Sequence record: OP172785
DNA from: Escherichia phage ECO07P2
Strand: one strand, 5' to 3'
DNA length: 64,000 nucleotides
Positions 12,785-47,644 of the stretch are shown piece after piece (positions within the stretch are counted from its first letter, which is position 1; every line of letters begins with the position of its first letter). The position numbers and the translations under genes were made by a program. The notes under the pieces were generated by a model. The model was not told the origin of the DNA, searched no databases, and saw only the letters and a list, made by a program, of their open reading frames with translations.

Positions 12785-13420
12785 TCACAGTTCAGATGCT
12801 ACGGTGATTACTGCTTCAATGTTTTCTGCCGAGCGTTTAATGTCAAGATACACATTACCATTTTTAGCGATTTTGCATGACATACCGATGTCAGTAAATT
12901 TCTGAATATGATGTTCCATCATTTTGTATCCAAAAATTCGCATATTTCCATTGTTGTTAATTTCAAAATTACGAATTCCGTGAGTGCGTTTTTCTAAAAT
13001 AGCGAGATAGTTACTACGATAAGTTTCAACTTTTTTAAGAACAAATCCATTTTCATCTAAAAGTTTTAACATGAAATCTTTATCTTCTTCCATATCAGAA
13101 GTAATCTCGCGAGCTTTACGAGTTGCTCGTTTTTTCAGTAGTTCCGGAGCATTTTCCTGTGCGTATAAAGTTGCCGCGTTTGAAATAATATCCTGAGCTT
13201 CACCAGTAATGATTAATCCATCACCAGATTTCTCCACCAGGCCTTTTTTAATCAATACCCCAATATTACTATTAACTACTGCATTACCTAAATCTGGATG
13301 CACCTCACGAACTTCTGCAGCTGTAATGAAATCTTTCTTAGCAATGGTAATTAAAATCGCAGCAGTTTTTTCATTCAGAACATCGTTAGAAGCTTTGATG
13401 ATGTAAGTTACTTTAGACAT
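12785..13420 (-). CDS. motA: middle-promoter transcription activator MotA
   Basis: 211 aa MSKVTYIIKASNDVLNEKTA... matches remembered T4 MotA length and sequence. Confidence 0.9.
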   Translation of the reverse strand: MSKVTYIIKASNDVLNEKTAAILITIAKKDFITAAEVREVHPDLGNAVVNSNIGVLIKKGLVEKSGDGLIITGEAQDIISNAATLYAQENAPELLKKRATRKAREITSDMEEDKDFMLKLLDENGFVLKKVETYRSNYLAILEKRTHGIRNFEINNNGNMRIFGYKMMEHHIQKFTDIGMSCKIAKNGNVYLDIKRSAENIEAVITVASEL

Positions 13421-13449
13421 TTTCTAATCTCCGTAATTCTGTATCAGCA

Positions 13450-13495
13450 GTTGATAGTTGTATAGTACCACAGTATGCTTTGGTTGTAAACCGTT
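13450..13495 (-). promoter_or_regulatory. early promoter (GTTTAC -35, TACTAT -10) upstream of motA
   Basis: Minus strand GTTTAC (13486-13491) and TACTAT (13462-13467); carries the conserved 24-nt core AGTTGATAGTTGTATAGTACCAC. Confidence 0.6.
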
Positions 13496-13518
13496 TTGTG
13501 AAAAAAATTTTAAAATAA

Positions 13519-13545
13519 AAAGGGAGAGCCAAGGCTCTCCCTAAA
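13519..13545 (-). terminator. rho-independent terminator
   Basis: GGGAGAGCC-AAGG-CTCTCCC hairpin followed on the minus strand by a T-run. Confidence 0.55.
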
Positions 13546-16254: not shown

Positions 16255-16473
16255 TTATTTTACACCATTCCAAATTGTTTCAACCACAGATTTTAAGCCA
16301 TTTTGGTGAATATCCATTCCGACAACTGCCATCAAATAGATTCCAACTACAACTGAACCTAAGGCAAAAATCAGCATGAAAATGAATAAAGCTGGAAAAA
16401 TATTATCGAAAAACCATTCAATAAATGTAAAAGCACTGCGTTTACGCTTCATATTTTCCTCACATAAATCCAA
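16255..16473 (-). CDS. hypothetical membrane protein (72 aa)
   Basis: Two hydrophobic segments. Confidence 0.45.
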   Translation of the reverse strand: MDLCEENMKRKRSAFTFIEWFFDNIFPALFIFMLIFALGSVVVGIYLMAVVGMDIHQNGLKSVVETIWNGVK

Positions 16474-16573
16474 AGTAAGCGTTTAATACATCAATCATTA
16501 AAACGATTGGGAATATACTCAAAACTACTAGTATTATAACTACATTCCATATAGCTTTAACAATCTTTTTCAT
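16460..16573 (-). CDS. hypothetical small membrane protein (37 aa)
   Basis: MKKIVKAIWNVVIILVVLSIFPIVLMIDVLNAYFGFM directly downstream of an early promoter; the ORF-track 82 aa version reads through the promoter. Confidence 0.4.
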   Translation of the reverse strand: MKKIVKAIWNVVIILVVLSIFPIVLMIDVLNAYFGFM

Positions 16574-16579
16574 TTTCTG

Positions 16580-16631
16580 TTCCTCCGTAGTTGATAGTTG
16601 TATAGTACCACAGAGGAACAGTCTTGTAAAC
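16580..16631 (-). promoter_or_regulatory. early promoter with flanking stem-loop (PeSL-like cassette)
   Basis: GTTTAC at 16626-16631, TACTAT at 16602-16607, inverted repeat GTTCCTC...GAGGAAC brackets the -10 region. Confidence 0.6.
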
Positions 16632-16816
16632 AACTTTTTTAAAAATATTCGTAATAAATGTGAATACCAACTACTACCGCTGAAACTTGTGCAACCCACC
16701 ACGCACAAGCAATAAGTACAGAATTCAAAATTTTCATAATAACCTCATCACAAAAGTAAATACTAAACAAATCAATGGAATACTAATTAACCAAACAAAA
16801 CACCACCACAATGAAC

Positions 16817-17089
16817 TCATAGTTCAATCTCAGCGATTTTCATTTCATTACTATTAATAGCCGCTTTAAGACTATCTGAAAGAATTACATCCCAGTGGTC
16901 ATTCATATGACCATTAACTAAGCGTGTAATTTCTTCAGGAGTTGAAAAATAAGGCGTATCAGACTCCCAGTGCGATAGTCCCAAGCGAGTATAAATCATA
17001 CCTTCATCATCGCTAGAATATTCAACTGACACAAACTCATCAGTTATTTTATGTTTAGCGTAATAAAATTTAAATTTCATTTTACTCAA
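16817..17089 (-). CDS. hypothetical protein (90 aa)
   Basis: ORF. Confidence 0.5.
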   Translation of the reverse strand: MSKMKFKFYYAKHKITDEFVSVEYSSDDEGMIYTRLGLSHWESDTPYFSTPEEITRLVNGHMNDHWDVILSDSLKAAINSNEMKIAEIEL

Positions 17090-17292
17090 TAATCCGCTAA
17101 AAGATCGACGATTGCATCACGAAGACACTTATTCGCAATACGCTTAAAAGCAATTTCAGTTTCTGGAGCATTTTGAATAATCATTGAATTCAATTCAGCC
17201 TCAGCAAACTGAAGTTCTTTAACTAATTCAGCTTTATATTTTCCTTGCCCTTTCTTAGCTTTTGCTCGTTTTAATTCAGCTGTAGTAAACAT
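17086..17292 (-). CDS. hypothetical protein (68 aa)
   Basis: Start moved to MFTTAELK downstream of the early promoter. Confidence 0.45.
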   Translation of the reverse strand: MFTTAELKRAKAKKGQGKYKAELVKELQFAEAELNSMIIQNAPETEIAFKRIANKCLRDAIVDLLADY

Positions 17293-17313
17293 TTTATTCT
17301 CCAAATCCGTATC

Positions 17314-17356
17314 AGTTGATAGTTGTATAGTACCACAGTCCTTGTGGTATGTAAAC
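17314..17356 (-). promoter_or_regulatory. early promoter (PeSL-like)
   Basis: GTTTAC 17351-17356, TACTAT 17327-17332, stem-loop TACCACA-gtcct-TGTGGTA. Confidence 0.6.
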
Positions 17357-17372
17357 CGTTTTGTGAAAATTT

Positions 17373-17930
17373 TTAAATGGAAAGATACCATCCGTTGTAG
17401 TTGCTTTTTCTTACAACTTTACGAAGGTCTTCTCTATCACCAATGAACTTCGGAGTGTACTGGATGACACCTGGATGAATTTCTTTAGTGTTGAATATAA
17501 TTATACAGTCAGCGACCTGATGATTCAGAATGGGCCCTAGATTTATTCCAGAACCGTATGGATACTCTCCGCTGCATCCTGTTGTTACAGAAATCCAACG
17601 TGAGTCAGTTTGGTGTGTTTTGACTTCTACACGAAGCCCGCAATATCTTGGATGAGCCAATACATCCCATGCATATGTATACGGGTCATTAACATCCTCT
17701 TGGCCTTTGTTAACATACCCGCTCAGCCAATCTGCTACAAAAAACTCTGCATACACAGCGATACGGCATCTTTCGATGACTTCTGCTTTATCCTGATTAG
17801 GATTTTGTTTTAAAGAGTATCTTGCTGTATCAGCAATTTTGACCTTCATTTCACTAGTCAAGTCATTGTTCGATAGGGTAAATGTCGGAATCTGAAATAG
17901 TCTCTGTAAACCCGGATTCGTTTTCTGCAT
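17373..17930 (-). CDS. denB: endonuclease IV DenB
   Basis: 185 aa, position between ndd cluster and rIIB as in T4. Confidence 0.8.
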   Translation of the reverse strand: MQKTNPGLQRLFQIPTFTLSNNDLTSEMKVKIADTARYSLKQNPNQDKAEVIERCRIAVYAEFFVADWLSGYVNKGQEDVNDPYTYAWDVLAHPRYCGLRVEVKTHQTDSRWISVTTGCSGEYPYGSGINLGPILNHQVADCIIIFNTKEIHPGVIQYTPKFIGDREDLRKVVRKSNYNGWYLSI

Positions 17931-17995
17931 TAAACTTTCCTTTTACGTCGGAATCACTGATATTCATACAATAAATCATAGTTTCCCTTAAAACA

Positions 17996-18013
17996 AAAGG
18001 GCCGAAGCCCTTT
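17996..18013 (-). terminator. GC tetraloop hairpin
   Basis: AAGGGCC-GAAG-CCCTT followed by T-runs on both strands. Confidence 0.45.
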
Positions 18014-18016
18014 ATT

Positions 18017-18211
18017 TTATTTGAACTGTGCAATTCTTTTCTCTAAACAATCTGCGTAAGATTTCATTGAGATAAACTGCGAAAGCAGTAATTCTTGCTC
18101 AACTGCATTAACCGTTGAAAACTTTTCACTTTCTAAAAATTTGCTCAGTGCATTAATTTTGAGCATTAATTGATCGTATTCTTCTTTTACTCGTGCTTGA
18201 TAACCTAACAT
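18017..18211 (-). CDS. hypothetical protein (64 aa)
   Basis: ORF between rIIB and denB. Confidence 0.5.
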   Translation of the reverse strand: MLGYQARVKEEYDQLMLKINALSKFLESEKFSTVNAVEQELLLSQFISMKSYADCLEKRIAQFK

Positions 18212-18225: not shown

Positions 18226-18241
18226 AAGGGCCGAAGCCCTT
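18226..18241 (-). terminator. GC tetraloop hairpin at rIIB 3' end
   Basis: AAGGGCC-GAAG-CCCTT overlapping the rIIB stop codon. Confidence 0.45.
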
Positions 18242-19178
18242 ATTTAAATTGTTCAGTAACGTCTTCAACTACTTCGTATTGACAGGTACGCATTTTAGCA
18301 TCGTTGTAATCAATCGGAATTGATACTACATCACGAGGATGTACTTTAACTTTTACAACTCGGCTGGTTGAACTGCCAAAGTGACGAATATAAGATTTAG
18401 AACACACATGCAGACCACGAGAACAAGTTTGTGTATCATCGTCATTCACGCGAGTACGTGGCATTTTAACTACTTTACCAGGACTGTTATCAAAGGTATT
18501 TGAGTGACAGTCAAAGTAATTGCTGCGAACTACTTTCCAAGCATAGAAGTAACCGTCTTCTGTAATTTCAATATCGTTTGCTACCAAGAAATCAAAGAGT
18601 CGAGATACCGCTTTTTGGCTCGGGTTTTCCAACAGATTTTCCAAGAACGGAAAATAAAATTCAAAGTTTTCACCTTTTTCCATCGAATCGAGAATACGAT
18701 CAACTAAACCAGACCGCAATTCAATGTTTTGATAGAACAAGCTTCCACCTTCAATTCGAACATCACCGGAAATATATTTTTCAACAGCACGACGAACGTT
18801 AATTTTTTGCGCTGCTTCTTCCAATTTATCCGCAACAAGCAGATTAAGAATTTCTTGGAAGTTTGAATGAGTATTAGGAGTTGCGTTATAAGTTACACCA
18901 TCAACAGTAATTGAAATGAATTTTTTAGATGCATTCCAAATAATGTCAGATTTAGCAACTGGAGCAATAGCTGCATCACTCTTAACTTTAACTGTAATGT
19001 CACCGCTAATGGTAACTTTGGAGCGCTCAGCTTCTTCAGCATTTTTCAAAACACGACGGATTGTGTCCACCGATACACCTTGCCAATCAGCCAATTCCTG
19101 TTGGGTGTAATTACCACTTGAATACAGTTTGACAATTTCAGCTTGTTCGTTTTTGGTCAGGCATTTAATATTGTACAT
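18240..19178 (-). CDS. rIIB: rIIB protein
   Basis: 312 aa (T4 rIIB 312 aa), adjacent to rIIA. Confidence 0.9.
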   Translation of the reverse strand: MYNIKCLTKNEQAEIVKLYSSGNYTQQELADWQGVSVDTIRRVLKNAEEAERSKVTISGDITVKVKSDAAIAPVAKSDIIWNASKKFISITVDGVTYNATPNTHSNFQEILNLLVADKLEEAAQKINVRRAVEKYISGDVRIEGGSLFYQNIELRSGLVDRILDSMEKGENFEFYFPFLENLLENPSQKAVSRLFDFLVANDIEITEDGYFYAWKVVRSNYFDCHSNTFDNSPGKVVKMPRTRVNDDDTQTCSRGLHVCSKSYIRHFGSSTSRVVKVKVHPRDVVSIPIDYNDAKMRTCQYEVVEDVTEQFK

Positions 19179-21377: not shown

Positions 21378-21581
21378 TTAATTCATATTGCGTTTAATAA
21401 CTTCAGCAACTTCTAGTAATTCATCTTTAGTTGCGGTGTCGGATTGAATTTTATCTCTAATATCCTTAAAGCGGTTTTTAAACTCTTCGGCTTCTCCCAT
21501 ATCGAAAAAGCGTTGAATGATTCTATATTCTCGATGAACTGCTTTATCAAAAAGTTCTAAATTTACTTTATATGATTTCAT
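21378..21581 (-). CDS. hypothetical protein (67 aa, rIIA.1-like)
   Basis: ORF between gene 39 and rIIA. Confidence 0.55.
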
Positions 21582-21606
21582 TTCAATATCCTCATTTGCC
21601 CAATTA

Positions 21607-21636
21607 ATTATACCACATCCTTGTGGTAAAGTAAAC
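21607..21636 (-). promoter_or_regulatory. early promoter
   Basis: GTTTAC 21631-21636, TATAAT 21607-21612, stem-loop TACCACA-tcct-TGTGGTA. Confidence 0.6.
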
Positions 21637-23456
21637 TACTGACTCATCCATTCTTTACGAAGGTCAGCATTATCTCCCATGAGCATTTCAAAAAGCTCTT
21701 TCCAGTTCTCAGGAAGTTTAACAACATCATATACTGGATTTTGAATCATCTCACGATATTCAGATTTTTCCAAAGAGCCAAGTCCCTTAATATAACGGAT
21801 GCTATGTTTAGGTAGAGCATCTTTAGCACTCTCATATTCAGCGACTGTATAAAACCATTCTTGTTTTTTACCGACCTGAGCGATGATTACAGGAGTTTTG
21901 ACAAAGCGAATTCTTCCTTGTTCAAACAGTTCTGGCCAATTACTGAAAAATCCGAGCAGAGAAGGATAAATGCTTCCTAGACCATCGTGGTCAGCGTCAG
22001 TCATAATAGCAATATTATGATAATTCAAGTTTTCGGCTTTTTCACCAAGAACTAATCCAGTGATTGCGCAAATATCAAACAGTTCTTTGTTTTTAAGCAT
22101 ATCAGCATATGACATACCCCAACTGTTGAGAACTTTACCACGTAATGGATAACCACCATGAAGTTCTTTATCACGAACATCAATAAGATATCCGATAGCG
22201 GAATCACCCTCAGTCAAGAAAAGAGTAGTGTCAGCATCTTTACCACAAAGATTCGCTTTAATATGTTTATGAACCTTAGCTTTAGAAGCCTTTTTAGCTG
22301 CTTTAGTTTCTGCTGCTTTTTCTGCCGCCAATTTACGAGCCAAGGCAGCTTCAATGATTGGCATTAAAATTGCTTCATTGTTTAAAATAGCGCGTGAAAT
22401 CTTTTTAGCATCAAGCTGAATATGACTACGAATTTCACCAAAAGGAGAAGTCAAACGCTCTTTAGTTTGAGAATCAAATCGCATGTTTTTCATATCACGA
22501 ACAAACATAACGATAGTCAAACATTCTTTAACACGTGCTTTAGTTACATCAATTTTAAATTTACGTTTGATTTGTGGAATAAGGTCTTCACAAATATCAT
22601 CCATAACACAGTCAATGTGATGACCACCATTCTTAGTATGAATGTTATTGACGTATGTTAATTGACGAAAACCATCCGGTGAACGACCAACCGCAATAGA
22701 GCAATTTTCCTGTTCTTGAACGATAGCATGCTCATCATACTGGCGTGCATACTTCTTAAAATTGCCCTGAACCTTTTTACCATTAAAGGTAAATTGAATA
22801 TCAGGATAAACTACTGCAAGTGTCTGGAGACGATCTAGTGTAATGTCAAGATAAACTTGGGACAGCTCATTAGTTTCAAATGACATAAAATCAGGAATGA
22901 AAGTAACGCGAGTTCCTTTCCATTTTCCAGGAATAGTTTCCCATGATTTATTTTCCATGCCGTTTGAACAACGAACTACAATATTATTTTGACCGTCGCC
23001 AGTTTCACCGACAAACATCACAGAAAAAATGTTAGTTAAACTAGAACCAACACCGTTCATACCGCCAGTGACGCGTTCTTTGTCATCACCGAAGTTACCA
23101 CCTGCTTTTGGAATAGTCCATGCAGCAACAGGACCAGGAATTTCTTCACCGGTAGGTGTTTTAACCATCGCCTGTGGAATACCACGACCGTTATCTTCAA
23201 CTGTTACTTGATTGTTTTTAATAGTAACATTAATTTTATTCGCGAATTTAAACTTAGTACGAATACCTTCATCTACTGAGTTATCGATAATTTCATCAAT
23301 AAGCTTAACAAGACCAGGTACATACTGAACACTTTCCCATTTACCAAACAGAAAGCGCTCATGCATTTCATTAGCAGAAGAGCCAATATACATGCCGCTA
23401 CGCTTTTTGATATGTTCAATATCGCTCAGAATTTTAATTTCATTCTTAATCATCAC
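21636..23456 (-). CDS. 39: DNA topoisomerase II large subunit gp39, unsplit (GyrB-like ATPase plus Toprim in one chain)
   Basis: 606 aa continuous ORF with GHKL ATPase N-terminus and Toprim region; in T4 this is split into gene 39 plus gene 60. Confidence 0.9.
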   Translation of the reverse strand: MMIKNEIKILSDIEHIKKRSGMYIGSSANEMHERFLFGKWESVQYVPGLVKLIDEIIDNSVDEGIRTKFKFANKINVTIKNNQVTVEDNGRGIPQAMVKTPTGEEIPGPVAAWTIPKAGGNFGDDKERVTGGMNGVGSSLTNIFSVMFVGETGDGQNNIVVRCSNGMENKSWETIPGKWKGTRVTFIPDFMSFETNELSQVYLDITLDRLQTLAVVYPDIQFTFNGKKVQGNFKKYARQYDEHAIVQEQENCSIAVGRSPDGFRQLTYVNNIHTKNGGHHIDCVMDDICEDLIPQIKRKFKIDVTKARVKECLTIVMFVRDMKNMRFDSQTKERLTSPFGEIRSHIQLDAKKISRAILNNEAILMPIIEAALARKLAAEKAAETKAAKKASKAKVHKHIKANLCGKDADTTLFLTEGDSAIGYLIDVRDKELHGGYPLRGKVLNSWGMSYADMLKNKELFDICAITGLVLGEKAENLNYHNIAIMTDADHDGLGSIYPSLLGFFSNWPELFEQGRIRFVKTPVIIAQVGKKQEWFYTVAEYESAKDALPKHSIRYIKGLGSLEKSEYREMIQNPVYDVVKLPENWKELFEMLMGDNADLRKEWMSQ

Positions 23457-23480: not shown

Positions 23481-23505
23481 ATTATACTCCAGTAATCATA
23501 AAGCT
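23481..23505 (-). promoter_or_regulatory. candidate MotA-dependent middle promoter for gene 39
   Basis: Minus strand AGCTTTA (one mismatch to MotA box TGCTTTA), 12 nt, TATAAT; GAGGA RBS downstream. Confidence 0.4.
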
Positions 23506-23507
23506 AA

Positions 23508-23521
23508 AGGCCCGAAGGCCT
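23508..23521 (-). terminator. GC tetraloop hairpin
   Basis: AGGCC-CGAA-GGCCT followed by T-run. Confidence 0.4.
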
Positions 23522-23522
23522 T

Positions 23523-23783
23523 TTATTTAAAGCGGATAGTCGAATCCTTGAAGAATAGACCAGAACATACGGTTCCTTCTACTTTCTGCCCGGTAGGTCC
23601 AATAGCACGAAATCCAGTATGTTGGAAATCATTTTCAGAGCAACCGAACCAATTATATCCAGTGATTTCAATATTAGTAAAACCACTTGAAGACAAAACT
23701 TTGGTTGCATTATCAGCATCAGTACATCCTACTAAAGATACTGCTAATACTAATGCCGCGATAGAACGATTAACATATTTCAT
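23523..23783 (-). CDS. putative lipoprotein (86 aa)
   Basis: MKYVNRSIAALVLAVSLVGC signal peptide with lipobox LVGC. Confidence 0.55.
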   Translation of the reverse strand: MKYVNRSIAALVLAVSLVGCTDADNATKVLSSSGFTNIEITGYNWFGCSENDFQHTGFRAIGPTGQKVEGTVCSGLFFKDSTIRFK

Positions 23784-24340: not shown

Positions 24341-24745
24341 TTATTCCTTAAAATGTGCTTTTAACATCTGATACAAGGACCATGCATGTTCATTATTTTC
24401 AATAGTAACTTTCATTACCGGGAATTCTGTGAAATCTTCTATCTGTTCTTGCTCTTCAGAAGCTTGGTATGGATTTTCCACTTCATCAAAGAACTCAGCT
24501 TCGTTAGTAGAGAGCCAAATAAAGTTTTCGTCAAGGATATCAGCGCCGGCACAACGTTTGAGTACACCTGTGGATGTCACAATTTTAGTAGGACGACTGA
24601 GATGGTCAACATCTAAAATTTTAAAAGGTTCCATACCTAAACGTCGTGCGTAGATTCCGTTATCAGTATGGTCTTTAATAAAAGCTTCTTGAGCTTGTTT
24701 ATTTTTAAATTGATACCATTTATTAACTTCAAATCTAATAGCCAT
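24341..24745 (-). CDS. hypothetical protein (134 aa)
   Basis: ORF, acidic C-terminus. Confidence 0.5.
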
Positions 24746-24973: not shown

Positions 24974-25255
24974 TTAATTGAACAGTGGAGCGATGCGTTT
25001 CAGAAGAGTAGCAGCACCTTTGGCAAATTTTACATCATGAAAAACAGTTTCTTCTTCCGTTACAACACGAACTTTAATGTTTTCACAATCCCAATTTTTG
25101 CGAACAATCTTCAAAAGCTGCAGTAAATCTTTACATTCAGCAATATCGATAACACATCCACGAGAATCTTCCATTATCGCACGATAACCATAAGCCATAC
25201 CATAATCGTTGAAAGATTGTTCGATGATAATTAAGTTTTCCATTTTATTCTCCAA
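24974..25255 (-). CDS. hypothetical protein (93 aa)
   Basis: ORF. Confidence 0.5.
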   Translation of the reverse strand: MENKMENLIIIEQSFNDYGMAYGYRAIMEDSRGCVIDIAECKDLLQLLKIVRKNWDCENIKVRVVTEEETVFHDVKFAKGAATLLKRIAPLFN

Positions 25256-25268
25256 GTTGTTTTCTGTA

Positions 25269-25309
25269 TCAGTAGTTGATAGTTGTATAGTACCATAATC
25301 AACTACTGA
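25269..25309 (-). promoter_or_regulatory. early promoter inside perfect 13-bp inverted repeat (PeSL-like)
   Basis: ATCAGTAGTTGAT ... ATCAACTACTGAT brackets TACTAT (25287-25292). Confidence 0.5.
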
Positions 25310-25339
25310 TGTATATAGTTTTATGAAAAAATTTAAACT

Positions 25340-25837: not shown

Positions 25838-25876
25838 AGTTATCTCTCACTTGTTAAAAAGATTTTATACTCCACA

Positions 25877-25911
25877 GGACCATTATACTCTGGTCCCAAG
25901 AGTTTGTAAAC
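25877..25911 (-). promoter_or_regulatory. early promoter with stem-loop
   Basis: GTTTAC 25906-25911, TATAAT 25883-25888, GGACC...GGTCC inverted repeat. Confidence 0.55.
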
Positions 25912-26355: not shown

Positions 26356-26859
26356 TTAGTCTAAAGTAATAAAGCCTTTTAATTCAGCATGCGATTTACG
26401 GAACATTACTTGGTGTCCGCCAATTATAACTTCATCTTCAGGAACTTCGTATACAGCGAGATAAAATCCTTTAGAAGATAATTCTTCACGCTCTTCTCGA
26501 GTGAACCATCTCATCATATCATATTCACTAGCGAAAGCAAAATGATAAAGAGCTATAAACCATCCTGGAATATAGTGATCTACGCCTACATATTCCTCTT
26601 TCTCAAATTTAGTATTAATTGCTATATTAGCATTTTTAACTAATAATTTGTCTTCGCGCGGAAGAGGAATTCTTTTGTTATCATTACTATGATGTGTAAA
26701 ATTAGGTCTATCATAACCTACGTGTAATAACCACTCTTCGCTCCATGAATCTATTATACTCCTGTATGGAGTTATTTGAACACAAAGATTTCGACGTATT
26801 GTTATAGCATCTTCACAATTAAGAATACTAAACGATGATTCAACACGATAAATTTTCAT
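26356..26859 (-). CDS. hypothetical protein (167 aa)
   Basis: Start placed at MKIYRVE; ORF-track extension reads through the promoter. Confidence 0.5.
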   Translation of the reverse strand: MKIYRVESSFSILNCEDAITIRRNLCVQITPYRSIIDSWSEEWLLHVGYDRPNFTHHSNDNKRIPLPREDKLLVKNANIAINTKFEKEEYVGVDHYIPGWFIALYHFAFASEYDMMRWFTREEREELSSKGFYLAVYEVPEDEVIIGGHQVMFRKSHAELKGFITLD

Positions 26860-26869
26860 TTTATTATCC

Positions 26870-26916
26870 TCAGTAGCTATGGTGTTATAATACCACAACT
26901 AACCGAGGAAGTAAAC
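26870..26916 (-). promoter_or_regulatory. early promoter
   Basis: GTTTAC 26911-26916, TATTAT about 18 nt downstream. Confidence 0.5.
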
Positions 26917-31201: not shown

Positions 31202-31821
31202 TCAACTACCTCAATATCATACACTTTAAATGTTCCAAATGAATCGTGTAATTTTTCTTTTGAAATAGAAGTTATTTTATACTTTCCAATTGGAATCATC
31301 CATTCTTGTTCACGTACAATCATCATTAAGTTATCAGTACGTTCTGAATCTAATCCATCAGTATCTTCATATGTATACTTAAACTCAGTATTAGGAGAAG
31401 AAAGTATAATATCGCTGATATGGTCAGAGTAATTAAAAGCTTTATCAGTTTTTAAGCGAAGTATTGTGTCAGTGAAATATTCGGCATAAGAAAAAGAACA
31501 CGCTGTATGCAAACTAGTAGTAAATGAATCTACTCTGTTCGTTGAAAACACTTCTCCGACTTGTAAATCTTTAATGAGTTCTTTTGTCGATTTTGATATA
31601 CCACGATATAGCTGATAAGGCGATTTAGTTAAATGCTTTTTAACGATTTTATTCAACTGCTGATGAAGAGCTTCATTCTTTTTGGCTTCCATACATTGCC
31701 AAAGAACTGACTGTTCAAAGTCAGTAAATTTTTCACAGACCTTTTTATACATATCATATTGAAAATCGACACTTTCAGCTTTTATAGATAACTGTTCAAC
31801 ATCTGCAAGATTAATAATCAT
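31198..31821 (-). CDS. modB: ADP-ribosyltransferase ModB
   Basis: 207 aa (T4 ModB 207 aa), ATGA overlap with modA. Confidence 0.8.
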   Translation of the reverse strand: MIINLADVEQLSIKAESVDFQYDMYKKVCEKFTDFEQSVLWQCMEAKKNEALHQQLNKIVKKHLTKSPYQLYRGISKSTKELIKDLQVGEVFSTNRVDSFTTSLHTACSFSYAEYFTDTILRLKTDKAFNYSDHISDIILSSPNTEFKYTYEDTDGLDSERTDNLMMIVREQEWMIPIGKYKITSISKEKLHDSFGTFKVYDIEVVE

Positions 31822-31847
31822 GATAGCCTCCGTATACTTCAGAAGCT

Positions 31848-31877
31848 ATCATATCATTGTTAGGAAGGAAAGTAAAC
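31848..31877 (-). promoter_or_regulatory. early promoter upstream of modB
   Basis: GTTTAC 31872-31877, TATGAT 31848-31853. Confidence 0.5.
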
Positions 31878-34289: not shown

Positions 34290-34297
34290 TATTTATA
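34290..34297 (-). promoter_or_regulatory. late promoter TATAAATA for soc
   Basis: Minus-strand TATAAATA about 32 nt upstream of the soc ATG. Confidence 0.65.
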
Positions 34298-34467
34298 TCA
34301 GTTTTCAATGAAAACTTGTGCCATGAATTCATGTTCATCTTGAATTTGTTTATATAAAGCCATTACAGCATTTATATTAGAGCTATCTACTTTAAGTTGA
34401 TAAGCATACAGCTCATGTAAATTAATTAAAGCTTTTTGACGTTTAATAAATTCTTCTTTGGATATTT

Positions 34468-35244: not shown

Positions 35245-35257
35245 ATAAGGAGGACAT

Positions 35258-36650: not shown

Positions 36651-36651
36651 A

Positions 36652-37643: not shown

Positions 37644-37937
37644 TTATTCGCCTGTGATTTCGGTTACGATATTTTTATTATTAAAGTTTTTATCGCAATA
37701 CAGAACATAATTATACTGCATTACACCACCAGACTTAAGTTGTTTTTGCACTTCAGCTTTCATTTCAGGACGATCACGCTCAACGATATTCATAATATCG
37801 GCTTCAATCTGAGTTTCAACCTCAGTCTGATCTGCAGTCATAGACCACTCACACAAATCTTTGTCATAACCCGCCATAGCAGGCTGAGCAGCGCAAGAAG
37901 ATAAAGCAAAAATTGCAGCAAAGATAAATTTTTTCAT
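37644..37937 (-). CDS. sp: Spackle periplasmic protein Sp
   Basis: 97 aa with signal peptide MKKFIFAAIFALSSCAAQPAMA; T4 Sp is 97 aa at this position. Confidence 0.8.
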   Translation of the reverse strand: MKKFIFAAIFALSSCAAQPAMAGYDKDLCEWSMTADQTEVETQIEADIMNIVERDRPEMKAEVQKQLKSGGVMQYNYVLYCDKNFNNKNIVTEITGE

Positions 37938-37963
37938 GATAATCTCCTCAGTAGTTTATGTTT

Positions 37964-37993
37964 ATAGTATCTCAATTTTCAACAAAAGTAAAC
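37964..37993 (-). promoter_or_regulatory. early promoter upstream of sp
   Basis: GTTTAC 37988-37993, TACTAT 37964-37969. Confidence 0.55.
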
Positions 37994-38040
37994 ACTAGTA
38001 GAAGCAAACAGACAAATTACAATAATTGGTGATTTCAGTT

Positions 38041-38232
38041 TCATTCTTCTCCTCCATGTTGATGAACATATTCTTTTTCAAGTCTAGAGCACAAGTTTTC
38101 ATATTCAACTAATAAAAATGAATCAAGTGCGTTATTTCTATGCTGACACCGTTCTTGTAAAGAATCCATCTCTGAACGTTGTTCTTGTGTTAATAATTGA
38201 TAACCTGATACTTTAGACATTTTATTCTCCAT
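38041..38232 (-). CDS. hypothetical protein (63 aa)
   Basis: ORF. Confidence 0.45.
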   Translation of the reverse strand: MENKMSKVSGYQLLTQEQRSEMDSLQERCQHRNNALDSFLLVEYENLCSRLEKEYVHQHGGEE

Positions 38233-38284
38233 TTACTCGTTTGTTTTGATAGGTCTATAATAACATGTTTAAAACAAAAGTAAA

Positions 38285-38539
38285 CTATTTTATTTCCTCA
38301 AGTTCGTTAATCAATAAAAGTTCTCTGACGCTAAAAACAAAGAAAAATGTGTTCCCATCAACCAGAGCATGACCGCTAATAGAACACCCTCTGCGGAATT
38401 TAGAAACTTCACAATCTAGAACTGTAAAGGGTTTTAATCCTATGACTTTAACTGTGCGTCTATTCAGTTCACAACCACTCGCGAATTTTTCCAAATCTTC
38501 TTCTGATTTAAACTGATATTCTCTATTAACTAGCATCAT
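38285..38539 (-). CDS. hypothetical protein (84 aa)
   Basis: ORF. Confidence 0.5.
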   Translation of the reverse strand: MMLVNREYQFKSEEDLEKFASGCELNRRTVKVIGLKPFTVLDCEVSKFRRGCSISGHALVDGNTFFFVFSVRELLLINELEEIK

Positions 38540-38558
38540 TTTCTTTTCTCCGCGATTA

Positions 38559-38600
38559 GCTGATAGAATTACTATAACACAACTCTATCAGCTTGTAAAC
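38559..38600 (-). promoter_or_regulatory. early promoter with stem-loop
   Basis: GTTTAC 38595-38600, TATAGT 38571-38576, inverted repeat AGCTGATAG...CTATCAGCT. Confidence 0.55.
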
Positions 38601-38602
38601 TA

Positions 38603-38902
38603 CTATTTTAAAACTTCTGTATAATCACATGTTACAAACTGTTTCTCTAACTTGACGATTTTACGAAAGTATCTTTTGCATTGGCGAATCTGCCGCTTTG
38701 TAGGGCGCACAGCAAACTTAATAAATTCCACTCGACCAAATGGAGGGCTTTCTTCTGCTGGAATATCTAATACCAATTCCCACGTATCTGCGATAAGTGC
38801 TTTGAATTGAGTATTTTTCCTTACGTTATACGGAGTAGGTTTAAATAAAACAATATGCATATTATCCTCGGCAATCCACTTCGCATACTTTCTTGTCATC
38901 AA
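38603..38902 (-). CDS. hypothetical protein (99 aa)
   Basis: ORF. Confidence 0.5.
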   Translation of the reverse strand: MMTRKYAKWIAEDNMHIVLFKPTPYNVRKNTQFKALIADTWELVLDIPAEESPPFGRVEFIKFAVRPTKRQIRQCKRYFRKIVKLEKQFVTCDYTEVLK

Positions 38903-39044: not shown

Positions 39045-39062
39045 AAAAATCTCCTCATTTAA

Positions 39063-39103
39063 CCGACAAGACTACTATACCATAGTCTTGTCGGCTTGTA
39101 AAC
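39063..39103 (-). promoter_or_regulatory. early promoter with 12-bp stem-loop
   Basis: GTTTAC 39098-39103, TATAGT 39074-39079, inverted repeat CCGACAAGACTA...TAGTCTTGTCGG. Confidence 0.55.
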
Positions 39104-44520: not shown

Positions 44521-44772
44521 TTAAAACTTAACAAATAACTTTAAAGCATCTTCAGTTTTAATTCCTTTTCTTACACCCATAACAGAAATTGGCTGTGACT
44601 GAAATTTTCCTTTACCATTATAAATTTCCAATCCTGTCACCATTCCATTTTGTTCTATAATACCGTAAGTATTACCTTCATTTTCAAATTCTTTAACTTT
44701 AAAGAGTTTATTAGCTTTTTCTGCATTAACAACTTTTAAATTTTGAATAAAATTAGTTTGAATATTTTTCAT
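44521..44772 (-). CDS. hypothetical protein (83 aa)
   Basis: Start placed at MKNIQTNF downstream of the early promoter. Confidence 0.5.
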   Translation of the reverse strand: MKNIQTNFIQNLKVVNAEKANKLFKVKEFENEGNTYGIIEQNGMVTGLEIYNGKGKFQSQPISVMGVRKGIKTEDALKLFVKF

Positions 44773-44779
44773 TTTGTGT

Positions 44780-44830
44780 TCCTCCGTAGTTGATAGTTGT
44801 ATAGTACCATGGAAGAACAGGGATGTAAAC
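44780..44830 (-). promoter_or_regulatory. early promoter (PeSL-like, near-identical to 16580..16631)
   Basis: GTTTAC 44825-44830, TACTAT 44801-44806; about 50 nt nearly identical to the copy at 16570-16620, including RBS and start codon. Confidence 0.6.
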
Positions 44831-44918
44831 AGTTTTGTGAAAAAATTTTTAATGAATTCCAGAGGTCCAGAATCATCTATTTTTCCTAAGTATAGATTTA
44901 TATTACTTGTATGAAAAA

Positions 44919-44934
44919 GGGACCCGGAGGTCCC
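44919..44934 (-). terminator. hairpin after gene 43
   Basis: GGGACC-CGGA-GGTCCC. Confidence 0.45.
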
Positions 44935-44947
44935 CAGATTTATTCTA

Positions 44948-47644
44948 TCAGCCAAACAGGAAGTCTAACGAAGCTTTTTCCTCATAGTCCATACCTGCCG
45001 ATTCACACATACCCGCAAGCGGTTTAACAAACGATTTTTGGAACAAAGTTGAGTAGTCAATCCAAGCCAGTACATCAGAACGAATTTCTTTTGGAAGTTC
45101 CGTACCCGATGGCCAAGCAATGCACTTGTCACCAAATGGATTTCCCTCACGTAACGGAAGAACCATTACCTTATTTCCATCCAAAATTGGAGCTACACCT
45201 AAACCACTAACAGCTCGACGATAAGTTAGCACACCGCGAATGTGGAACGGGCATTTAAATCCTGGCCAACCTTTATCATCATATTTCGCTATATCATTCG
45301 CAGTTTTTACTTCAGCAATAACTTTATAGTCAAGTTGACGATATTCTTTCTCAAAGTTCTTGTAGTATTCTTGGACAGACTCTTCGCCTTCCTGAAGAAT
45401 GCGACGAATACTTTCTTCGAGAGCTTCTTGTACTGCTTTTGGTGTTGAACTCTGCTGAGTTTCCATACCCATGATTTTTAGATGTGGTTCAGCAAATCGC
45501 TTATCTTCCATATCATAAACGTTCAGAGCATAACGTTTTTTCGCTTTCCAAAATCCACCAACACCCTTTGAACCAAGTGGAGGGCAAGAAATAGCTTCAC
45601 GGTCCATATGCATCAGATGCTCGCGGTTATTCATATAATCACATAACTCACGATATGCAACATCAATCATAGGTTCCATCTTTTTCTTACCGAACTGATT
45701 CATGAATTCAACTAAATCGTTCTGCTCTTTGAATCGGTCAAGACCTACTTTTTCAATTACTTTATCTACACAAACATATACAGAATCAGTGTCACCCGCT
45801 GCGATGAAATCTTCACCATCAGTTCCACACACTTTATTTAGATATTCATTAATTTTACGAGCAATCCACTGAATACCAACTTGTCCAAAAATCGTGATAG
45901 CAGTAGCATTTCGCAAATCATAGTAGCGGAAATGAATATTACCAAGAGCACCATAAAGACTGTTGATAAGAATTTTACGGTTCAGCTGATTTGTGTTAGC
46001 AAGTGTAGCTGCTTTTTCACATTCTTCGATCAGACTATTAAGAACAGATTCAGTGTAATTCGATAATTCATTTAAGAAATCATCGCTGAACTTAACATAT
46101 CGTTCAACTTCTGGTTTAGTTGAGCAAGACCCTGCACCTTTCATAATAATCTTTTTAATAGCTTCGGCATTCATTTCTTCGGCGAACATTTTCTTTTTCC
46201 AATCTTTACGCTGGAAAAATACTTTAGCGATTTCCTTTGGAATGATACCTTCTTGATGCTTATCATACATCCATCCATTCGGAGAACAAGAATATTCATC
46301 ACTTGGCTTAGGAGCTGTTCCTGCGATATATTCATGAATTGGATGAACTTTAAACTGTCCACGAATAGTCTCAGGACTAATGTTAACCTGACGAATAATG
46401 CTAGGATACAGAGACGTCAAGTCAAAACTCATAATGTATCGACGAGCAATAGGTTTAGGTTCAAACACAAATGCACCTGGAAAACTTTGTTTAACGTGCG
46501 AACCTTGCTGAGGAATAACCTTATGTTCACTTTTCAACGAGTTAAAAATAATAGCATCCCAAGTTTTAATAGGACTCATTACACCAGAAAAAGGCATTTT
46601 AGCATAATAAGACATACTTAAAACTAGATCGATAAACCCACGAATTTTATCAATTGCTTGAACTGATTCTACGTCAATGATGTTATAACTAATGTATCGT
46701 TGATGATTAGTCTCACGAAGTTTATTAATAGGACCATCGTACGGTAATTTACCCTTTTTGGTTTCATGCTGAGCAACTGATTCCAAAGAGAATGATGGCA
46801 AATTAGTAAATGCGAACTTCTTGTACAAATCTAAATAATCAAGAATAGATACGCCATCAATAGAATAAATTTCTTTGCTACCGTACATATTTTGAATTAG
46901 TTTAGATTTTACTCGACCGATTGGAGAGAAGCGTTTCATACTGCGTTCGCCCAGAACCATTTTAACACGATTCATGATATACGGAACGTCAAATCCCTCA
47001 ATATTCCAACCGGTAAAAATAGCAGGTCGTTTCTGTTCCCAGAGATTAATATATTCCATGAGCATATCACGCTCATTATCAAATGGCATATAAATTACTC
47101 GGTCAAGAATTTCTTGAGGAACTTCATCACCACCTTCACAGTCAAGCTTAGCAGCTAACTTTGCATCCCATTTTGATACTGAACCGTACATTGAATTCAA
47201 CAAATCAAAGACGTAAAAACGGTCGTCAATTGAATCATAATGAGTGATAGCATCAATTTCATATTCTGCTTTCATTGGGTCAGGAAATTTATCGCCAGTA
47301 ACCTCAATGTCACAGTTAGCTACACGAACAAATTTTCGGTCATAAACAATTTCTGAACCATATGTATCACTGATATAAGCGAGTTTAAAATCGTTCATAC
47401 CGAGAGCTTCGAGACCGATGTCTTCCATTCGTTTCATCCAATCTCGGGCATCTTTCATTGATGGAAATTTTTGAGGAGCACAGTTTTTACCATAAATGTC
47501 TTTGTATTTTGACTCTTCCTTACAATGCCTAAACATAGTCGGAAGATATTCTACTTCGCGAGTACGTTCCTTTCCGTTTTCATCAATATAACGTTCAACA
47601 ATGCTATTTCCGACTGTTTCAATAGAGATATAAAATTCTTTCAT
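44948..47644 (-). CDS. 43: DNA polymerase gp43 (family B)
   Basis: 898 aa (T4 gp43 898 aa), exonuclease and polymerase motifs including GDTDS. Confidence 0.95.
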   Translation of the reverse strand: MKEFYISIETVGNSIVERYIDENGKERTREVEYLPTMFRHCKEESKYKDIYGKNCAPQKFPSMKDARDWMKRMEDIGLEALGMNDFKLAYISDTYGSEIVYDRKFVRVANCDIEVTGDKFPDPMKAEYEIDAITHYDSIDDRFYVFDLLNSMYGSVSKWDAKLAAKLDCEGGDEVPQEILDRVIYMPFDNERDMLMEYINLWEQKRPAIFTGWNIEGFDVPYIMNRVKMVLGERSMKRFSPIGRVKSKLIQNMYGSKEIYSIDGVSILDYLDLYKKFAFTNLPSFSLESVAQHETKKGKLPYDGPINKLRETNHQRYISYNIIDVESVQAIDKIRGFIDLVLSMSYYAKMPFSGVMSPIKTWDAIIFNSLKSEHKVIPQQGSHVKQSFPGAFVFEPKPIARRYIMSFDLTSLYPSIIRQVNISPETIRGQFKVHPIHEYIAGTAPKPSDEYSCSPNGWMYDKHQEGIIPKEIAKVFFQRKDWKKKMFAEEMNAEAIKKIIMKGAGSCSTKPEVERYVKFSDDFLNELSNYTESVLNSLIEECEKAATLANTNQLNRKILINSLYGALGNIHFRYYDLRNATAITIFGQVGIQWIARKINEYLNKVCGTDGEDFIAAGDTDSVYVCVDKVIEKVGLDRFKEQNDLVEFMNQFGKKKMEPMIDVAYRELCDYMNNREHLMHMDREAISCPPLGSKGVGGFWKAKKRYALNVYDMEDKRFAEPHLKIMGMETQQSSTPKAVQEALEESIRRILQEGEESVQEYYKNFEKEYRQLDYKVIAEVKTANDIAKYDDKGWPGFKCPFHIRGVLTYRRAVSGLGVAPILDGNKVMVLPLREGNPFGDKCIAWPSGTELPKEIRSDVLAWIDYSTLFQKSFVKPLAGMCESAGMDYEEKASLDFLFG

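Follow-up and report, generated by a model that had tools for sequence, protein, structure and literature searches.

The near-identical cassettes that recur in the 64,000-nucleotide stretch of DNA analysed here (hereafter the window) are very probably T4-type early-promoter cassettes, whose conserved blocks would support a shuffling of small genes of the PeSL (promoter-early stem-loop) type and whose hairpins would form in read-through transcripts. The cassette finding is real, and the PeSL phenomenon is already known: PeSLs were defined in phi1/RB49 (Arbiol et al. 2010, PMC2839356) and extended to the T4/PST pair with the consensus TTTACW-N17-TAYWAT (Comeau et al. 2014, PMC4122927), Fig. 6A of the latter paper presenting a PeSL-associated ndd.4/.5 exchange in the region of the present finding. 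The likeness to PeSLs drawn in the earlier note on this DNA is accurate and valid for this phage group (PMC2839356; PMC4122927).

The cassettes were recognized through five exact copies of the 22-mer AGTTGATAGTTGTATAGTACCA (plus strand), at 13449, 16589, 17314, 25274 and 44788, all of which read TGGTACTATACAACTATCAACT on the minus strand. The chance expectation for this core is 0 (100 shuffles), and no other match with up to three mismatches was found in the 64,000-nt window. The earlier claim of a core recurring always on the minus strand therefore holds; its sites were right and its positions off by 0-3 nt. In terms of a T4-type early sigma-70 promoter, the 22-mer runs from TGn through the -10 box (TACTAT) and the discriminator into the transcribed region, of which it includes the first ~7 bases, and represents the -16 to about +7 portion of one sequence subfamily. 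All five copies have the 17-nt spacer, the TG and TACTAT, as well as a GGAG-type Shine-Dalgarno sequence (SD) located 5-8 nt before an ATG. The -35 hexamer is TTTACA in four of them, which fit the T4/PST form, and TATACA at 25315, one mismatch from TTTACW; further upstream, a AAAAATTTTTTCACAAAAC-type sequence precedes four copies and ATATTTTTAAAAAAGTT is present at 16630. The promoters carrying the core are PmotA, Pndd.4, the post-denB promoter, one upstream of the cef region (in the motB-cef interval) and the post-gene-43 promoter, with the following features:

13418..13542, minus strand: PmotA cassette, with UP region, -35 at 13490-13485, -10 at 13467-13462 and core at 13470-13449.
13542-13521, minus strand: intrinsic terminator of the PmotA cassette, called by the terminator scan.
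13420-13418, minus strand: motA ATG, preceded by a leader with SD GGAG; no bracketing inverted repeat (z -0.04).
16571..16650, minus strand: Pndd.4 cassette, with A/T-rich UP region, -35 TTTACA at 16630-16625, and TGn followed by -10 TACTAT at 16607-16602.
16610-16589, minus strand: core 22-mer of Pndd.4.
16621-16577, minus strand: Pndd.4 hairpin, with a 15-bp stem (-23.2 kcal/mol, z -4.4) and SD GGAGG at 16586-16582 in its 3' arm.
16573-16571, minus strand: ATG of the Pndd.4 cargo, a 37-aa Ndd.4-like membrane peptide (phrog_3098; T4 ortholog and variants).
17290..17375, minus strand: post-denB cassette, with -35 at 17355-17350, -10 at 17332-17327 and core at 17335-17314.
Promoter 17355, minus strand: post-denB structure, a small 7-bp spacer hairpin only.
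17292-17290, minus strand: ATG following the post-denB leader, in which GATACGGATTTGGAGAATAAAATG is SD plus RegB consensus.
16849-17290, minus strand: post-denB cargo, a 440-nt two-ORF insert absent from T4.
25241..25335, minus strand: motB-cef interval cassette, with -35-like TATACA at 25315-25310, -10 at 25292-25287 and core at 25295-25274.
25310-25268, minus strand: perfect 13-bp inverted repeat of the motB-cef cassette (z -4.6), with the SD outside the repeat.
25243-25241, minus strand: ATG of the motB-cef cassette cargo, an 89-aa ORF.
44770..44935, minus strand: post-gene-43 cassette, with UP region, -35 at 44829-44824, -10 at 44806-44801 and core at 44809-44788.
44935-44918, minus strand: gene 43 intrinsic terminator, forming the upstream part of the post-gene-43 cassette.
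44819-44777, minus strand: post-gene-43 hairpin (z -2.9), containing the SD.
44521-44772, minus strand: post-gene-43 cargo, an 83-aa ORF (ATG 44772-44770) that most relatives lack.

An independent repeat search returned these cassettes as the largest direct-repeat families of the region, the 84-nt family D2 (16562-16645 versus 44761-44844) being 86% identical. As for the two copies at 16570 and 44770, previously described as sharing about 50 identical nt, their near-identity stands with an actual figure of 44 out of 45 nt: 33 identical nt, one G/C mismatch, and 11 identical nt through AAAATGAAAAA, a stretch that spans the SD, the ATG and codon 2. The peptide GTIQLSTTEE is an ORF-calling artefact, as the earlier note stated: it results from translating GGTACTATACAACTATCAACTACGGAGGAA in two mechanical ORFs, 16460..16708 and 44521..44955, ahead of the real starts (MKKIV... 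and MKNIQ...). In gene calling, ORFs should not be extended across the cassettes, and the artefact is probably also present in public protein families. Besides, the T6 record bears an 'attL' feature on one cassette, and repeat-based tools can mislabel such sequences.

Sequence comparison identifies the window as early-region DNA of a Tequatrovirus, a T4-like phage, with 95-98% identity to Tequatrovirus genomes across gp52-ndd-denB-rIIB. The T4 record U76612 carries annotated -35 and -10 signals on an identical nrdC.8 cassette, and the core is also found in T4, at motA and post-denB. Hinton 2010 (PMC2988021) describes the early promoters of T4 as composed of UP, -35, TGn and -10 elements, with further consensus regions. 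The copies described here are very probably T4-type early promoters with their leaders, belonging to a Tequatrovirus early region. Each cassette consists, in this order, of an A/T-rich UP region, the -35 GTTTAC(A/T), a 17-nt spacer, and TGn with the -10 TACTAT, then a conserved discriminator and initial transcribed sequence (ACAACT / ATCAACT), and finally a short leader ending in a GGAG-type SD and the ATG of a small early gene. In many copies, this SD is at the same time the RegB/S1 cleavage consensus GGAGAAUAAAA, which is published for T4 early mRNAs (Durand et al. 2006, PMC1702504) and which the leader GGAGAATAAAATG (SD-ATG) equals; RegB was tested at the motB.2 and nrdC.8 sites, and both were cut (PMC1702504). 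By homology with T4, in which this is established, the host sigma-70 RNA polymerase would fire these promoters immediately after infection.

Since a generic sigma-70 promoter scan gave no excess over shuffles in such A/T-rich DNA (54 versus 54.9 expected; 73 versus 61), promoters were defined by the T4-type pattern together with a downstream SD and ATG. An Rfam scan of the whole window returned no family at its gathering score. Scans of sequence collections with the core motif recovered 20 loci in IMG/VR and 11 in metagenomes, which come from a handful of T4-like genomes, so that their contexts are visible but too few for statistics. Further early promoters of the window are the following:

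21581..21635, minus strand: PrIIA.1 early promoter, with a 7-bp hairpin in the spacer only (ACCACAAGGATGTGGT; z -1.0).
25866..25910, minus strand: early promoter TTTACA-17-TATAAT, whose -10 box is enclosed by a stem (z -2.7).
26857..26915, minus strand: PmotB.2 early promoter, with a hairpin at 26909-26867 (z -6.9) whose 5' arm falls within the spacer and whose 3' arm contains SD GAGGA, the -10 box being part of the loop.
37930..38605, minus strand: three tandem early-promoter modules of T4-type pattern, from 61.4 to sp.
38593-38558, minus strand: hairpin of P38599, the module that drives an 84-aa ORF.
Within 37930..38605, minus strand: P38284, with a 59-aa ORF.
Within 37930..38605, minus strand: P37992, with sp.
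39061..39102, minus strand: Pdmd early promoter, with a 15-bp hairpin around the -10 box TATAGT (z -6.2).

In related phages, the promoters are kept at the same sites and the small ORFs downstream differ. The earlier note held that identical positions with identical cargo in all relatives would argue against mobility; positions are indeed conserved, but cargo is not. Its description of mobile cassettes shuffling small genes is thus borne out as far as gene change is concerned, the cassettes themselves being fixed landmarks. Cargo is polymorphic post-denB, post-43, between sp and 61.4 and in the motB-cef interval, with PmotA as an exception whose cargo is conserved. More precisely, the 83-aa gene after gene 43 occurs in ~30 of 533 phage records, the post-denB insert of two genes in 64 of 506, and the two modules between 61.4 and sp in 16 of 514, the segment 37994-38595 missing in most relatives. 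One promoter context can precede different ORFs depending on the phage, with three states after denB and three after gene 43; in other phages, the post-gene-43 promoter drives imm.1 or a 78-85-aa ORF, and RB69 has imm.1 and imm in the sp-61.4 slot, not after gene 43. As regards the 89-aa ORF, 200 nt are missing in T4, F1, PST and T6, with a junction 5 nt past the ATG. The cargo ORFs fall in PHROG families of unknown function, except for the 84-aa ORF of P38599, which matches the 'goF mRNA metabolism modulator' PHROG.

The breakpoints lie inside conserved cassette motifs, namely the -35 GTTTAC (7-13 nt shared) or the SD-ATG/RegB site GGAGAATAAAATG. At sp-61.4, the T4 and Lutter junction is at the -35 GTTTAC, that of G28 at the -35 GTTTACTTTTGTT, and that of IsaacDaniel at the SD-ATG. 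Moreover, the variants of spacer, discriminator (ACAA or TACC) and leader are combined semi-independently from locus to locus and from genome to genome, an indication of patchwise exchange between cassettes. In some genomes, ndd.4 and nrdC.8 show 0-1 difference in about 62 nt from the -35 to the ATG, and their upstream flanks are unrelated. The same 60-100 nt recur in one orientation at many gene starts, so that the -35 block and the SD-ATG block could serve as short homologies, at which recombination would insert, delete or swap small ORFs with correct expression kept. From the observed junction positions we infer a recombination pathway of the modular PeSL type and, possibly, a mini-circle intermediate. 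With 6-15 nt, the junction homologies are very short; illegitimate recombination mediated by microhomology would explain them as well as homologous recombination would.

The contribution of the cassettes is partial. Against T4, F1, PST and T6, a cassette adjoins only 4 of about 11 small-ORF indels, and about 15 of the ~95 genes of the region have such a promoter (a rough count), so that the enrichment over any gene boundary is modest to weak. The remaining indels are found at ordinary gene boundaries or are bordered by a direct repeat of 49 nt (family D11), and the T4-specific insertions are mostly homing-endonuclease genes. The cassettes are hence one contributor among several to small-ORF indels and explain only part of them. 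What the mapped breakpoints add to the published picture is its refinement to two short exchange blocks, the -35 GTTTAC and the SD-ATG/RegB site.

A stronger form of mobility, in which the cassettes would be autonomous elements, excised as mini-circles of promoter plus ORF and reinserted at other cassettes, is regarded as somewhat unlikely. Such circles were detected experimentally in phi1/RB49 (PMC2839356), and the window contains tandem same-orientation cassettes 290-725 nt apart (38599/38284/37992 and 17355/16630), between which -35 GTTTAC junctions are compatible with excision; the G28 and T4 states are exactly those that cassette-to-cassette excision would leave, and the different slots of imm.1 and imm in RB69 and T4 point in the same direction. 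However, several inserts are bordered by a cassette at just one end, with a junction at a bare ATG at the other (44508, 16849), and no recombinase is associated with the cassettes.

The inverted repeats call for a more nuanced statement. That the core is usually bracketed by such a repeat is true for three of the five copies (16630, 25315 and 44829) but not for PmotA (13490) and post-denB (17355), where z is about 0; among the other promoters for which stem-loops had been proposed, they are found at 39102, 25910 and 38599 (z -2.1, or -4.3 under a simpler mononucleotide shuffle), the one at 21635 being weak. At seven promoters, with folding z-scores of -2.7 to -6.9, the repeat has the -10 box in its loop, its 5' arm within the -35/-10 spacer and its 3' arm within the leader. 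The stem-loops expected for PeSLs are therefore present, but since they straddle the -10 box and have no U-tail, they differ from the canonical terminators that the name PeSL suggests.

It could nevertheless be proposed that the embedded repeats are terminators or attenuators of upstream transcription, insulating each small-gene module, in line with the strong termination measured for one phi1 PeSL stem-loop (Arbiol 2010, PMC2839356), with the stability of the hairpins (-14 to -24 kcal/mol) and with the evidence for action at the RNA level, on the sense strand. This reading is unlikely: the terminator scan calls none of the embedded hairpins, whereas the same scan detects canonical terminators ahead of PmotA, of P33978 and of the post-43 promoter, and the loops measure 6-15 nt. 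In addition, the motB.2 helix, which covaries across three lineages (the T4 group, RB69 and a third T-even lineage), has the SD as its anchor, a sign of a role in translation rather than in termination. Its pairs were tabulated by hand from the anti-SD:SD anchor, as MAFFT alignments put the arms out of register.

Two further readings are less probable. The similarity of the cassettes might reflect functional convergence or conservation of very strong promoters without any role in recombination, their proximity to variable genes resulting only from the location of both in intergenic stretches of the plastic early region. A long consensus common to T4 early promoters is known (PMC2988021), even RB69 promoters retain the initial transcribed sequence CTATCAACT, and the modest indel enrichment given above would suit this reading. 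It is quite improbable in view of the breakpoints inside conserved blocks, all three independent sp-61.4 junctions falling in the -35 or the SD-ATG, of the discriminator and leader variants swapped between non-orthologous promoters, and of the ndd.4/nrdC.8 near-identity next to unrelated flanks. Least probable of all is an action of the repeats as DNA, either as a cruciform or protein-binding palindrome modulating promoter opening or as a substrate cut (e.g. by endonuclease VII) for recombination: the -10 box inside the loop at seven promoters, the speculation of Arbiol 2010 (PMC2839356) on a DNA-binding recombination protein, and the perfect 13-bp palindrome at 25315, equally stable on both strands, would suit it, but natural variants keep pairing via G.U, which are mismatches in DNA and C.A in the antisense strand, the sense RNA is 3-12 kcal/mol more stable than the antisense at Pndd.4, Pdmd, PmotB.2 (T4 group) and P38599, and the arm sequences are unrelated between promoters, leaving no common protein site.

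Most likely, the repeats are RNA hairpins formed only in transcripts that read through from upstream, because the promoter's own start site sits between the two arms. In the Pdmd hairpin, variants retain pairing from G-C to G.U to A-U. Within Tequatrovirus, the type-A hairpin (cassettes 16630 and 44829) has six variable stem sites, four of which keep pairing via G.U and two of which break terminal pairs, its sequences being too similar for the covariation to be significant alone. In the type-A cassettes and in PmotB.2, which have the same architecture with unrelated arm sequences, the SD forms the 3' arm of the hairpin. Read-through RNA would thereby be untranslatable for the gene concerned and shielded from RegB, the RNA from the promoter itself being open.

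For 16630, 44829 and 26915, the in silico probability that the SD is unpaired is 0.00-0.01 in the read-through RNA versus 0.64-0.78 in the own-start RNA, and it is below that of 98-100% of shuffled-upstream controls in a constraint-based calculation covering 14 promoters. A general SD masking by promoter spacers was rejected, as only these 3 of the 14 promoters beat their controls; no such masking was found at the other 11. Folding and covariation would suggest, tentatively, that the hairpins in a subset of T-even early promoters (Pndd.4, PnrdC.8, the post-gene-43 promoter of this phage and PmotB.2) may be selected RNA elements acting as 'promoter-of-origin' gates. Only RNA from the own early promoter would expose the SD, which is also the RegB site, and the SD would stay paired in RNA reading through from upstream early or middle promoters; under such a gate, the first gene would be translated during the immediate-early minutes only. 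Support for it comes from the covariation of the motB.2 helix, from the G.U-preserving variants with their sense-strand bias and from SD masking beyond controls. SD masking restricted to read-through transcripts may, on these predictions, be new at the three promoters, and an early-promoter gate is not described in the T4 reviews and PeSL papers cited here. If right, this reading would provide a simple, testable layer of temporal control on T4 early gene expression.

Compared with known systems, the cassettes show no essential difference from the T4 early promoters (PMC2988021): they share the UP, -35 GTTTAC, TGn and -10 architecture with its additional conserved positions, and include orthologs of the T4 PmotA, ndd.4 and nrdC.8 promoters, among others. 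The ACAA discriminator is found at ndd.4 and at the motB-cef promoter in this phage, whereas T4 has other variants there. Type-B and type-C cassettes have the leader GGAGAAUAAAA(UG), identical to the RegB/S1 consensus (PMC1702504). RegB accounts for the conservation of the SD block but not for the promoter core or the hairpins.

With PeSLs, the likeness extends to the early sigma-70-type promoter, the A/T-rich upstream region, the stem-loop, and a small ORF of unknown function with its SD and start codon, to the many same-orientation copies in plastic early regions, and to the neighbouring gene insertions, deletions and replacements between close relatives. What is re-identified here is an already published mechanism for the gain, loss and exchange of small early genes in T4-like phages with proper expression kept. 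Stem-loops are represented by the embedded hairpins at 16630, 25315 and 44829 (z -2.9 to -4.6) and by the terminators upstream of 13490 and 44829. In the PST PeSLs (PMC4122927), the stem-loop lies just upstream of the promoter as a terminator, whereas here the repeats straddle the -10 box, which is the commonest position in phi1/RB49; with no U-tail, the terminator role that defines the phi1/RB49 PeSLs is not supported in silico. Other differences are that junctions here are often at the SD-ATG and not between two full cassettes, and that only about a third of small-ORF indels abut a cassette. The conserved elements of early promoter and stem-loop that flank T-even internal-protein (IP) genes (Repoila et al. 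1994, as cited in PMC2839356 and PMC4122927) are presented there with the same basis of repeated T4 early promoters, A/T-rich stem-loops and proposed small-gene swapping, but at IP loci, outside the present window.

Finally, T4 has inhibitory translation-initiation hairpins that include an internal promoter, described for the genes e, soc, 49 and I-TevI (McPheeters et al. 1986; PMC3014915). The same geometry is found at 16630, 44829 and 26915, with the SD in the 3' arm and the 5' arm upstream of the start site. In those genes, only transcripts begun at the internal promoter are translatable, which is predicted here from folding. As modelled, the SD-masking promoters work like this class without being members of the described set: the internal promoter of e, soc, 49 and I-TevI is late (gp55, TATAAATA) and delays expression, whereas the present ones are early sigma-70 promoters that would restrict it to the immediate-early phase, and the gate, if true, would be the early-promoter mirror image of that late-promoter device.

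Many Tequatrovirus (T4-like) genomes match the region at 95-98% identity, and its minus-strand genes follow the T4 order (motA, 52, ac, ndd, denB, rIIB, rIIA, 39 ... 43). A 22-mer core, AGTTGATAGTTGTATAGTACCA on the + strand, occurs there in five exact copies (at 13449, 16589, 17314, 25274 and 44788), all reading TGGTACTATACAACTATCAACT on the minus strand as the earlier note had stated; allowing up to three mismatches added no match in the window, and 100 dinucleotide shuffles gave none. In an unbiased repeat search, no direct-repeat families of the region were larger than those formed by the core sites. The copies, located by the start of their -35 element, are:

13490, minus strand, core copy upstream of motA (PmotA)
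16630, minus strand, core copy upstream of a 37-aa Ndd.4-like peptide (Pndd.4)
17355, minus strand, core copy directly after denB
25315, minus strand, core copy in the motB-cef interval
44829, minus strand, core copy directly after gene 43

The 22-mer extends from about -16 to +7 of a layout made of an A/T-rich UP region, a -35 element, a 17-nt spacer, TGn and the -10 box TACTAT, the -35 hexamer lying 15 nt upstream of each core (TTTACA in four of the five, TATACA at 25315). Judged by this geometry, the five copies are early promoters of the T4 type, for which UP, -35, TGn and -10 elements plus further consensus regions are described (Hinton review, PMC2988021). The cassette 3' block is in many copies GGAGAATAAAATG, the same as the RegB/S1 cleavage consensus GGAGAAUAAAA that occurs in Shine-Dalgarno (SD) regions of early mRNAs (PMC1702504). 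Each conserved cassette block thus has a known T4 function. T4 itself carries the exact core at motA and after denB, and its nrdC.8 is preceded by a near-identical cassette whose -35 and -10 signals are annotated in GenBank U76612. Besides, the repeat search found 86% identity across 84 nt between 16562-16645 and 44761-44844; the identity of about 50 nt claimed for the copies at 16570 and 44770 comes down to 44 of 45 nt in common, from the extended -10 TGG through AAAATGAAAAA.

Translation of the core plus SD gives the peptide GTIQLSTTEE, which two mechanically called ORFs, 16460..16708 and 44521..44955, contain; it precedes the real start in both and was rightly read as an artefactual N-terminal extension. 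The 37-aa Ndd.4-like peptide (ORF 16460-16708) aligns to positions 44-80 of the 80-aa PHROG profile phrog_28140, and database proteins probably carry the same extension through the promoter cassette. In the T6 record AP018814, an 'attL' feature (24507-24546) is annotated on the post-gene-43 promoter cassette, presumably a prophage-finder artefact due to the repeated cassette.

The core-motif scan of IMG/VR and metagenomes yielded 31 loci, which belong to a handful of T4-like genomes. Comparing cassette sites in relatives, the check proposed in the earlier note, revealed the same promoter contexts followed by different genes after denB, after gene 43 and between sp and 61.4:

After denB, T4: ndd.6 directly
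After denB, several phages: 87-aa ORF (MKFKF...)
After denB, window and phage vB_SsoM_113: 68-aa ORF, then the same 87-aa ORF
After gene 43, T4, PST and T6: imm.1 directly
After gene 43, second state: 78-85-aa ORF
After gene 43, window: 83-aa ORF

The eight-codon 'ORF' of T4 after the post-denB promoter is the leftover 3' end of the 87-aa gene. The cargo of the window is rare among phage records, the post-denB pair being present in 64 of 506, the post-43 83-aa ORF in about 30 of 533, and the two extra promoter-plus-ORF modules between 61.4 and sp (37994-38595) in 16 of 514. In RB69 (locus L044, 19011-19750), this slot holds imm.1 and imm, both genes having an early promoter of their own; T4-group phages carry these two genes after gene 43 (43869-44508 in the window). 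Three independent junctions were mapped at the sp-61.4 site: at the -35 GTTTAC in T4 and Lutter, at GTTTACTTTTGTT, from the -35 regions of a tandem promoter pair, in G28, and at SD-ATG in IsaacDaniel. At the post-denB, post-43 and 25315 sites, the upstream junction lies at or a few nt from the cassette ATG, or inside the core and leader, and the sequence shared at junctions amounts to 6-15 nt. In addition, spacer variants, discriminator variants (ACAA, TACC) and four types of leader combine semi-independently from locus to locus and from genome to genome, and ndd.4 and nrdC.8 show, in some genomes, 0-1 difference in about 62 nt from -35 to ATG, with unrelated upstream flanks. Taken together, the different cargo, the junction sites, the variant assortment and the RB69 imm placement fit recombination at conserved cassette blocks.

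The cassette phenomenon is already known, and the earlier note, in naming promoter-early stem-loop (PeSL) cassettes, is accurate as to phenomenon and host group (PMC2839356, PMC4122927). The PeSL definition, made in phi1/RB49, combines an early promoter with a stem-loop, an SD and a start codon, and the stem-loop mostly overlaps -10 or falls in the -35/-10 interval; terminator activity was measured and mini-circles were detected (PMC2839356). The concept was later applied to T4/PST, the consensus there being TTTACW-N17-TAYWAT and Fig. 6A representing the ndd.4/.5 exchange (PMC4122927); as cited in both papers, the idea originates from Repoila et al. 1994 on T-even internal-protein loci. The observation is hence confirmed and the PeSL interpretation supported, with three qualifications: the cassettes mark positions and do not themselves move, their embedded hairpins lack the features of canonical terminators, and they account for only part of the gene turnover.

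Comparison of the window with T4, F1, PST and T6 gives about 19 indel or replacement events, the T4-specific insertions being mainly homing-endonuclease genes (mobA/gene 60, segF, segA, mobB, mobC, I-TevII), plus dam. A promoter-cassette junction is present in 4 of the ~11 small-ORF events, the remaining ones lying at plain stop/start overlaps or, for 36696-37006, between 49-nt direct repeats; as a cassette-type promoter stands, by a rough count, at about 15 of roughly 95 genes in the region, the enrichment is therefore modest. The 49-nt repeat (36648-36696 and 37006-37054, 92% identical) comprises a duplication of the preceding gene's 3' end together with GGTTAATATG; it brackets a 310-nt insert absent from T4, PST and T6, an indel that arose without a promoter cassette. 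The window is also devoid of the T4 gene 60/mobA insertion, segF, dam, mobB, mobC and the I-TevII intron, its gene 39 being intact (606 aa). The sites differing from T4 are 21636-23456, 34297-34705, 35226-35247, 42046-42993, 55792-55817, 60593-60613 and 61889-61890. In place of T4 segA and beta-gt, the window has another segment, of 947 nt; the gene annotated at this position in F1 and PST is a beta-glucosyl-HMC-alpha-glucosyltransferase.

The cores had been described as usually bracketed by an inverted repeat. Folding against shuffles supports this in three of the five copies (16630, 25315 and 44829), but not at PmotA and post-denB, where no significant inverted repeat was detected (z about 0). 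Among the further stem-loop promoters proposed, those at 39102, 38599 and 25910 hold, and 21635 is weak:

16630, minus strand, hairpin of 15 bp, -23.2 kcal/mol, z -4.4
25315, minus strand, perfect 13-bp hairpin, z -4.6
44829, minus strand, hairpin, z -2.9
39102 (Pdmd), minus strand, hairpin, z -6.2
38599, minus strand, hairpin, z -2.1 (-4.3 with a simpler shuffle)
25910, minus strand, hairpin, z -2.7
21635, minus strand, small hairpin in the spacer only, z -1.0
26915 (PmotB.2), minus strand, strongest hairpin, z -6.9, absent from the earlier note

The geometry is constant: the spacer between -35 and -10 contributes the 5' arm, the leader contributes the 3' arm, and the -10 box falls in the loop or the upper part of the stem. 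None of these embedded hairpins is followed by a U-tract or called by the terminator scan, which does pick up canonical terminators a short distance upstream of PmotA (13542-13521), P33978 (34015-33994) and the post-43 promoter (44935-44918); by these sequence features, the hairpins embedded in promoters do not qualify as canonical terminators. The window has a second repeated regulatory element, the intergenic hairpin family AAAGGGCCGAAGCCCTTT (+ strand; UUCG tetraloop on the minus strand), which we take to be T4-type terminator or stabiliser stem-loops, at:

17989-18018, intergenic
18226-18253, intergenic
23499-23528, intergenic
47696-47725, intergenic
49866-49895, intergenic
54576-54605, intergenic
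58215-58244, intergenic

Elsewhere, a strong hairpin at 31820-31876 (minus strand; -18 kcal/mol, z about -4), also found at the equivalent position in T4, pairs the SD and ATG of a modB-like gene (MIINLADVEQ...) with the adjacent upstream sequence.

With transcription predicted to start between the two arms, the embedded hairpin is possible only in read-through RNA from upstream. The SD forms the 3' arm at 16630, 44829 and 26915, and its predicted probability of being unpaired is 0.00-0.01 in read-through RNA vs 0.64-0.78 in own-start RNA; in only these 3 of 14 promoters does the native upstream sequence mask the SD better than 98-100% of shuffled ones. The motB.2 hairpin (15-17 bp; the spacer provides the 5' arm, the loop contains the -10 box and the 3' arm includes the SD) is kept with differing arm sequences in three lineages, with covariation at three helix positions beside a CCUC:GAGG (anti-SD:SD) anchor:

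T4 group (window 26857-26915, minus strand): G.U, G-C, U-A
RB69 (L044, about 7373-7428): U-A, G-C, G-C
Third lineage (loci L049-L054, about 540-600): A-U, U-A, G-C

In the same line, Pndd.4 and Pdmd variants retain pairing via G.U, with one path from G-C through G.U to A-U, and where G.U pairs occur, the sense RNA is 3-12 kcal/mol more stable than the antisense. Because of this retained pairing and sense-strand folding advantage, the data point to hairpins acting at the RNA level on early-strand transcripts rather than as a DNA cruciform. In a metagenomic T4-like contig (L029, 2716-2765), the post-denB promoter has TACCGCAAGGACCGT as its spacer and ACGGAGGAGCGG as its leader, and the changes from A to G in the spacer and from AACAG to AGCGG in the leader jointly give CCGC:GCGG pairing; this cassette may be a hybrid whose bracket has evolved anew.

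A minority of cassettes could thereby form an SD-masking gate, of which no description was found in the T4 and PeSL literature examined. If an early promoter sits in such a hairpin, only immediate-early transcripts begun at the gene's own promoter would be translated, and RegB, known to be inhibited by structure (PMC3014915), would then inactivate these transcripts. The geometry at 16630, 44829 and 26915 equals that of e, soc, 49 and I-TevI, where a late promoter lies within an SD-masking hairpin and late transcripts alone are translated (PMC3014915), the difference being that the promoter is early here and late there.
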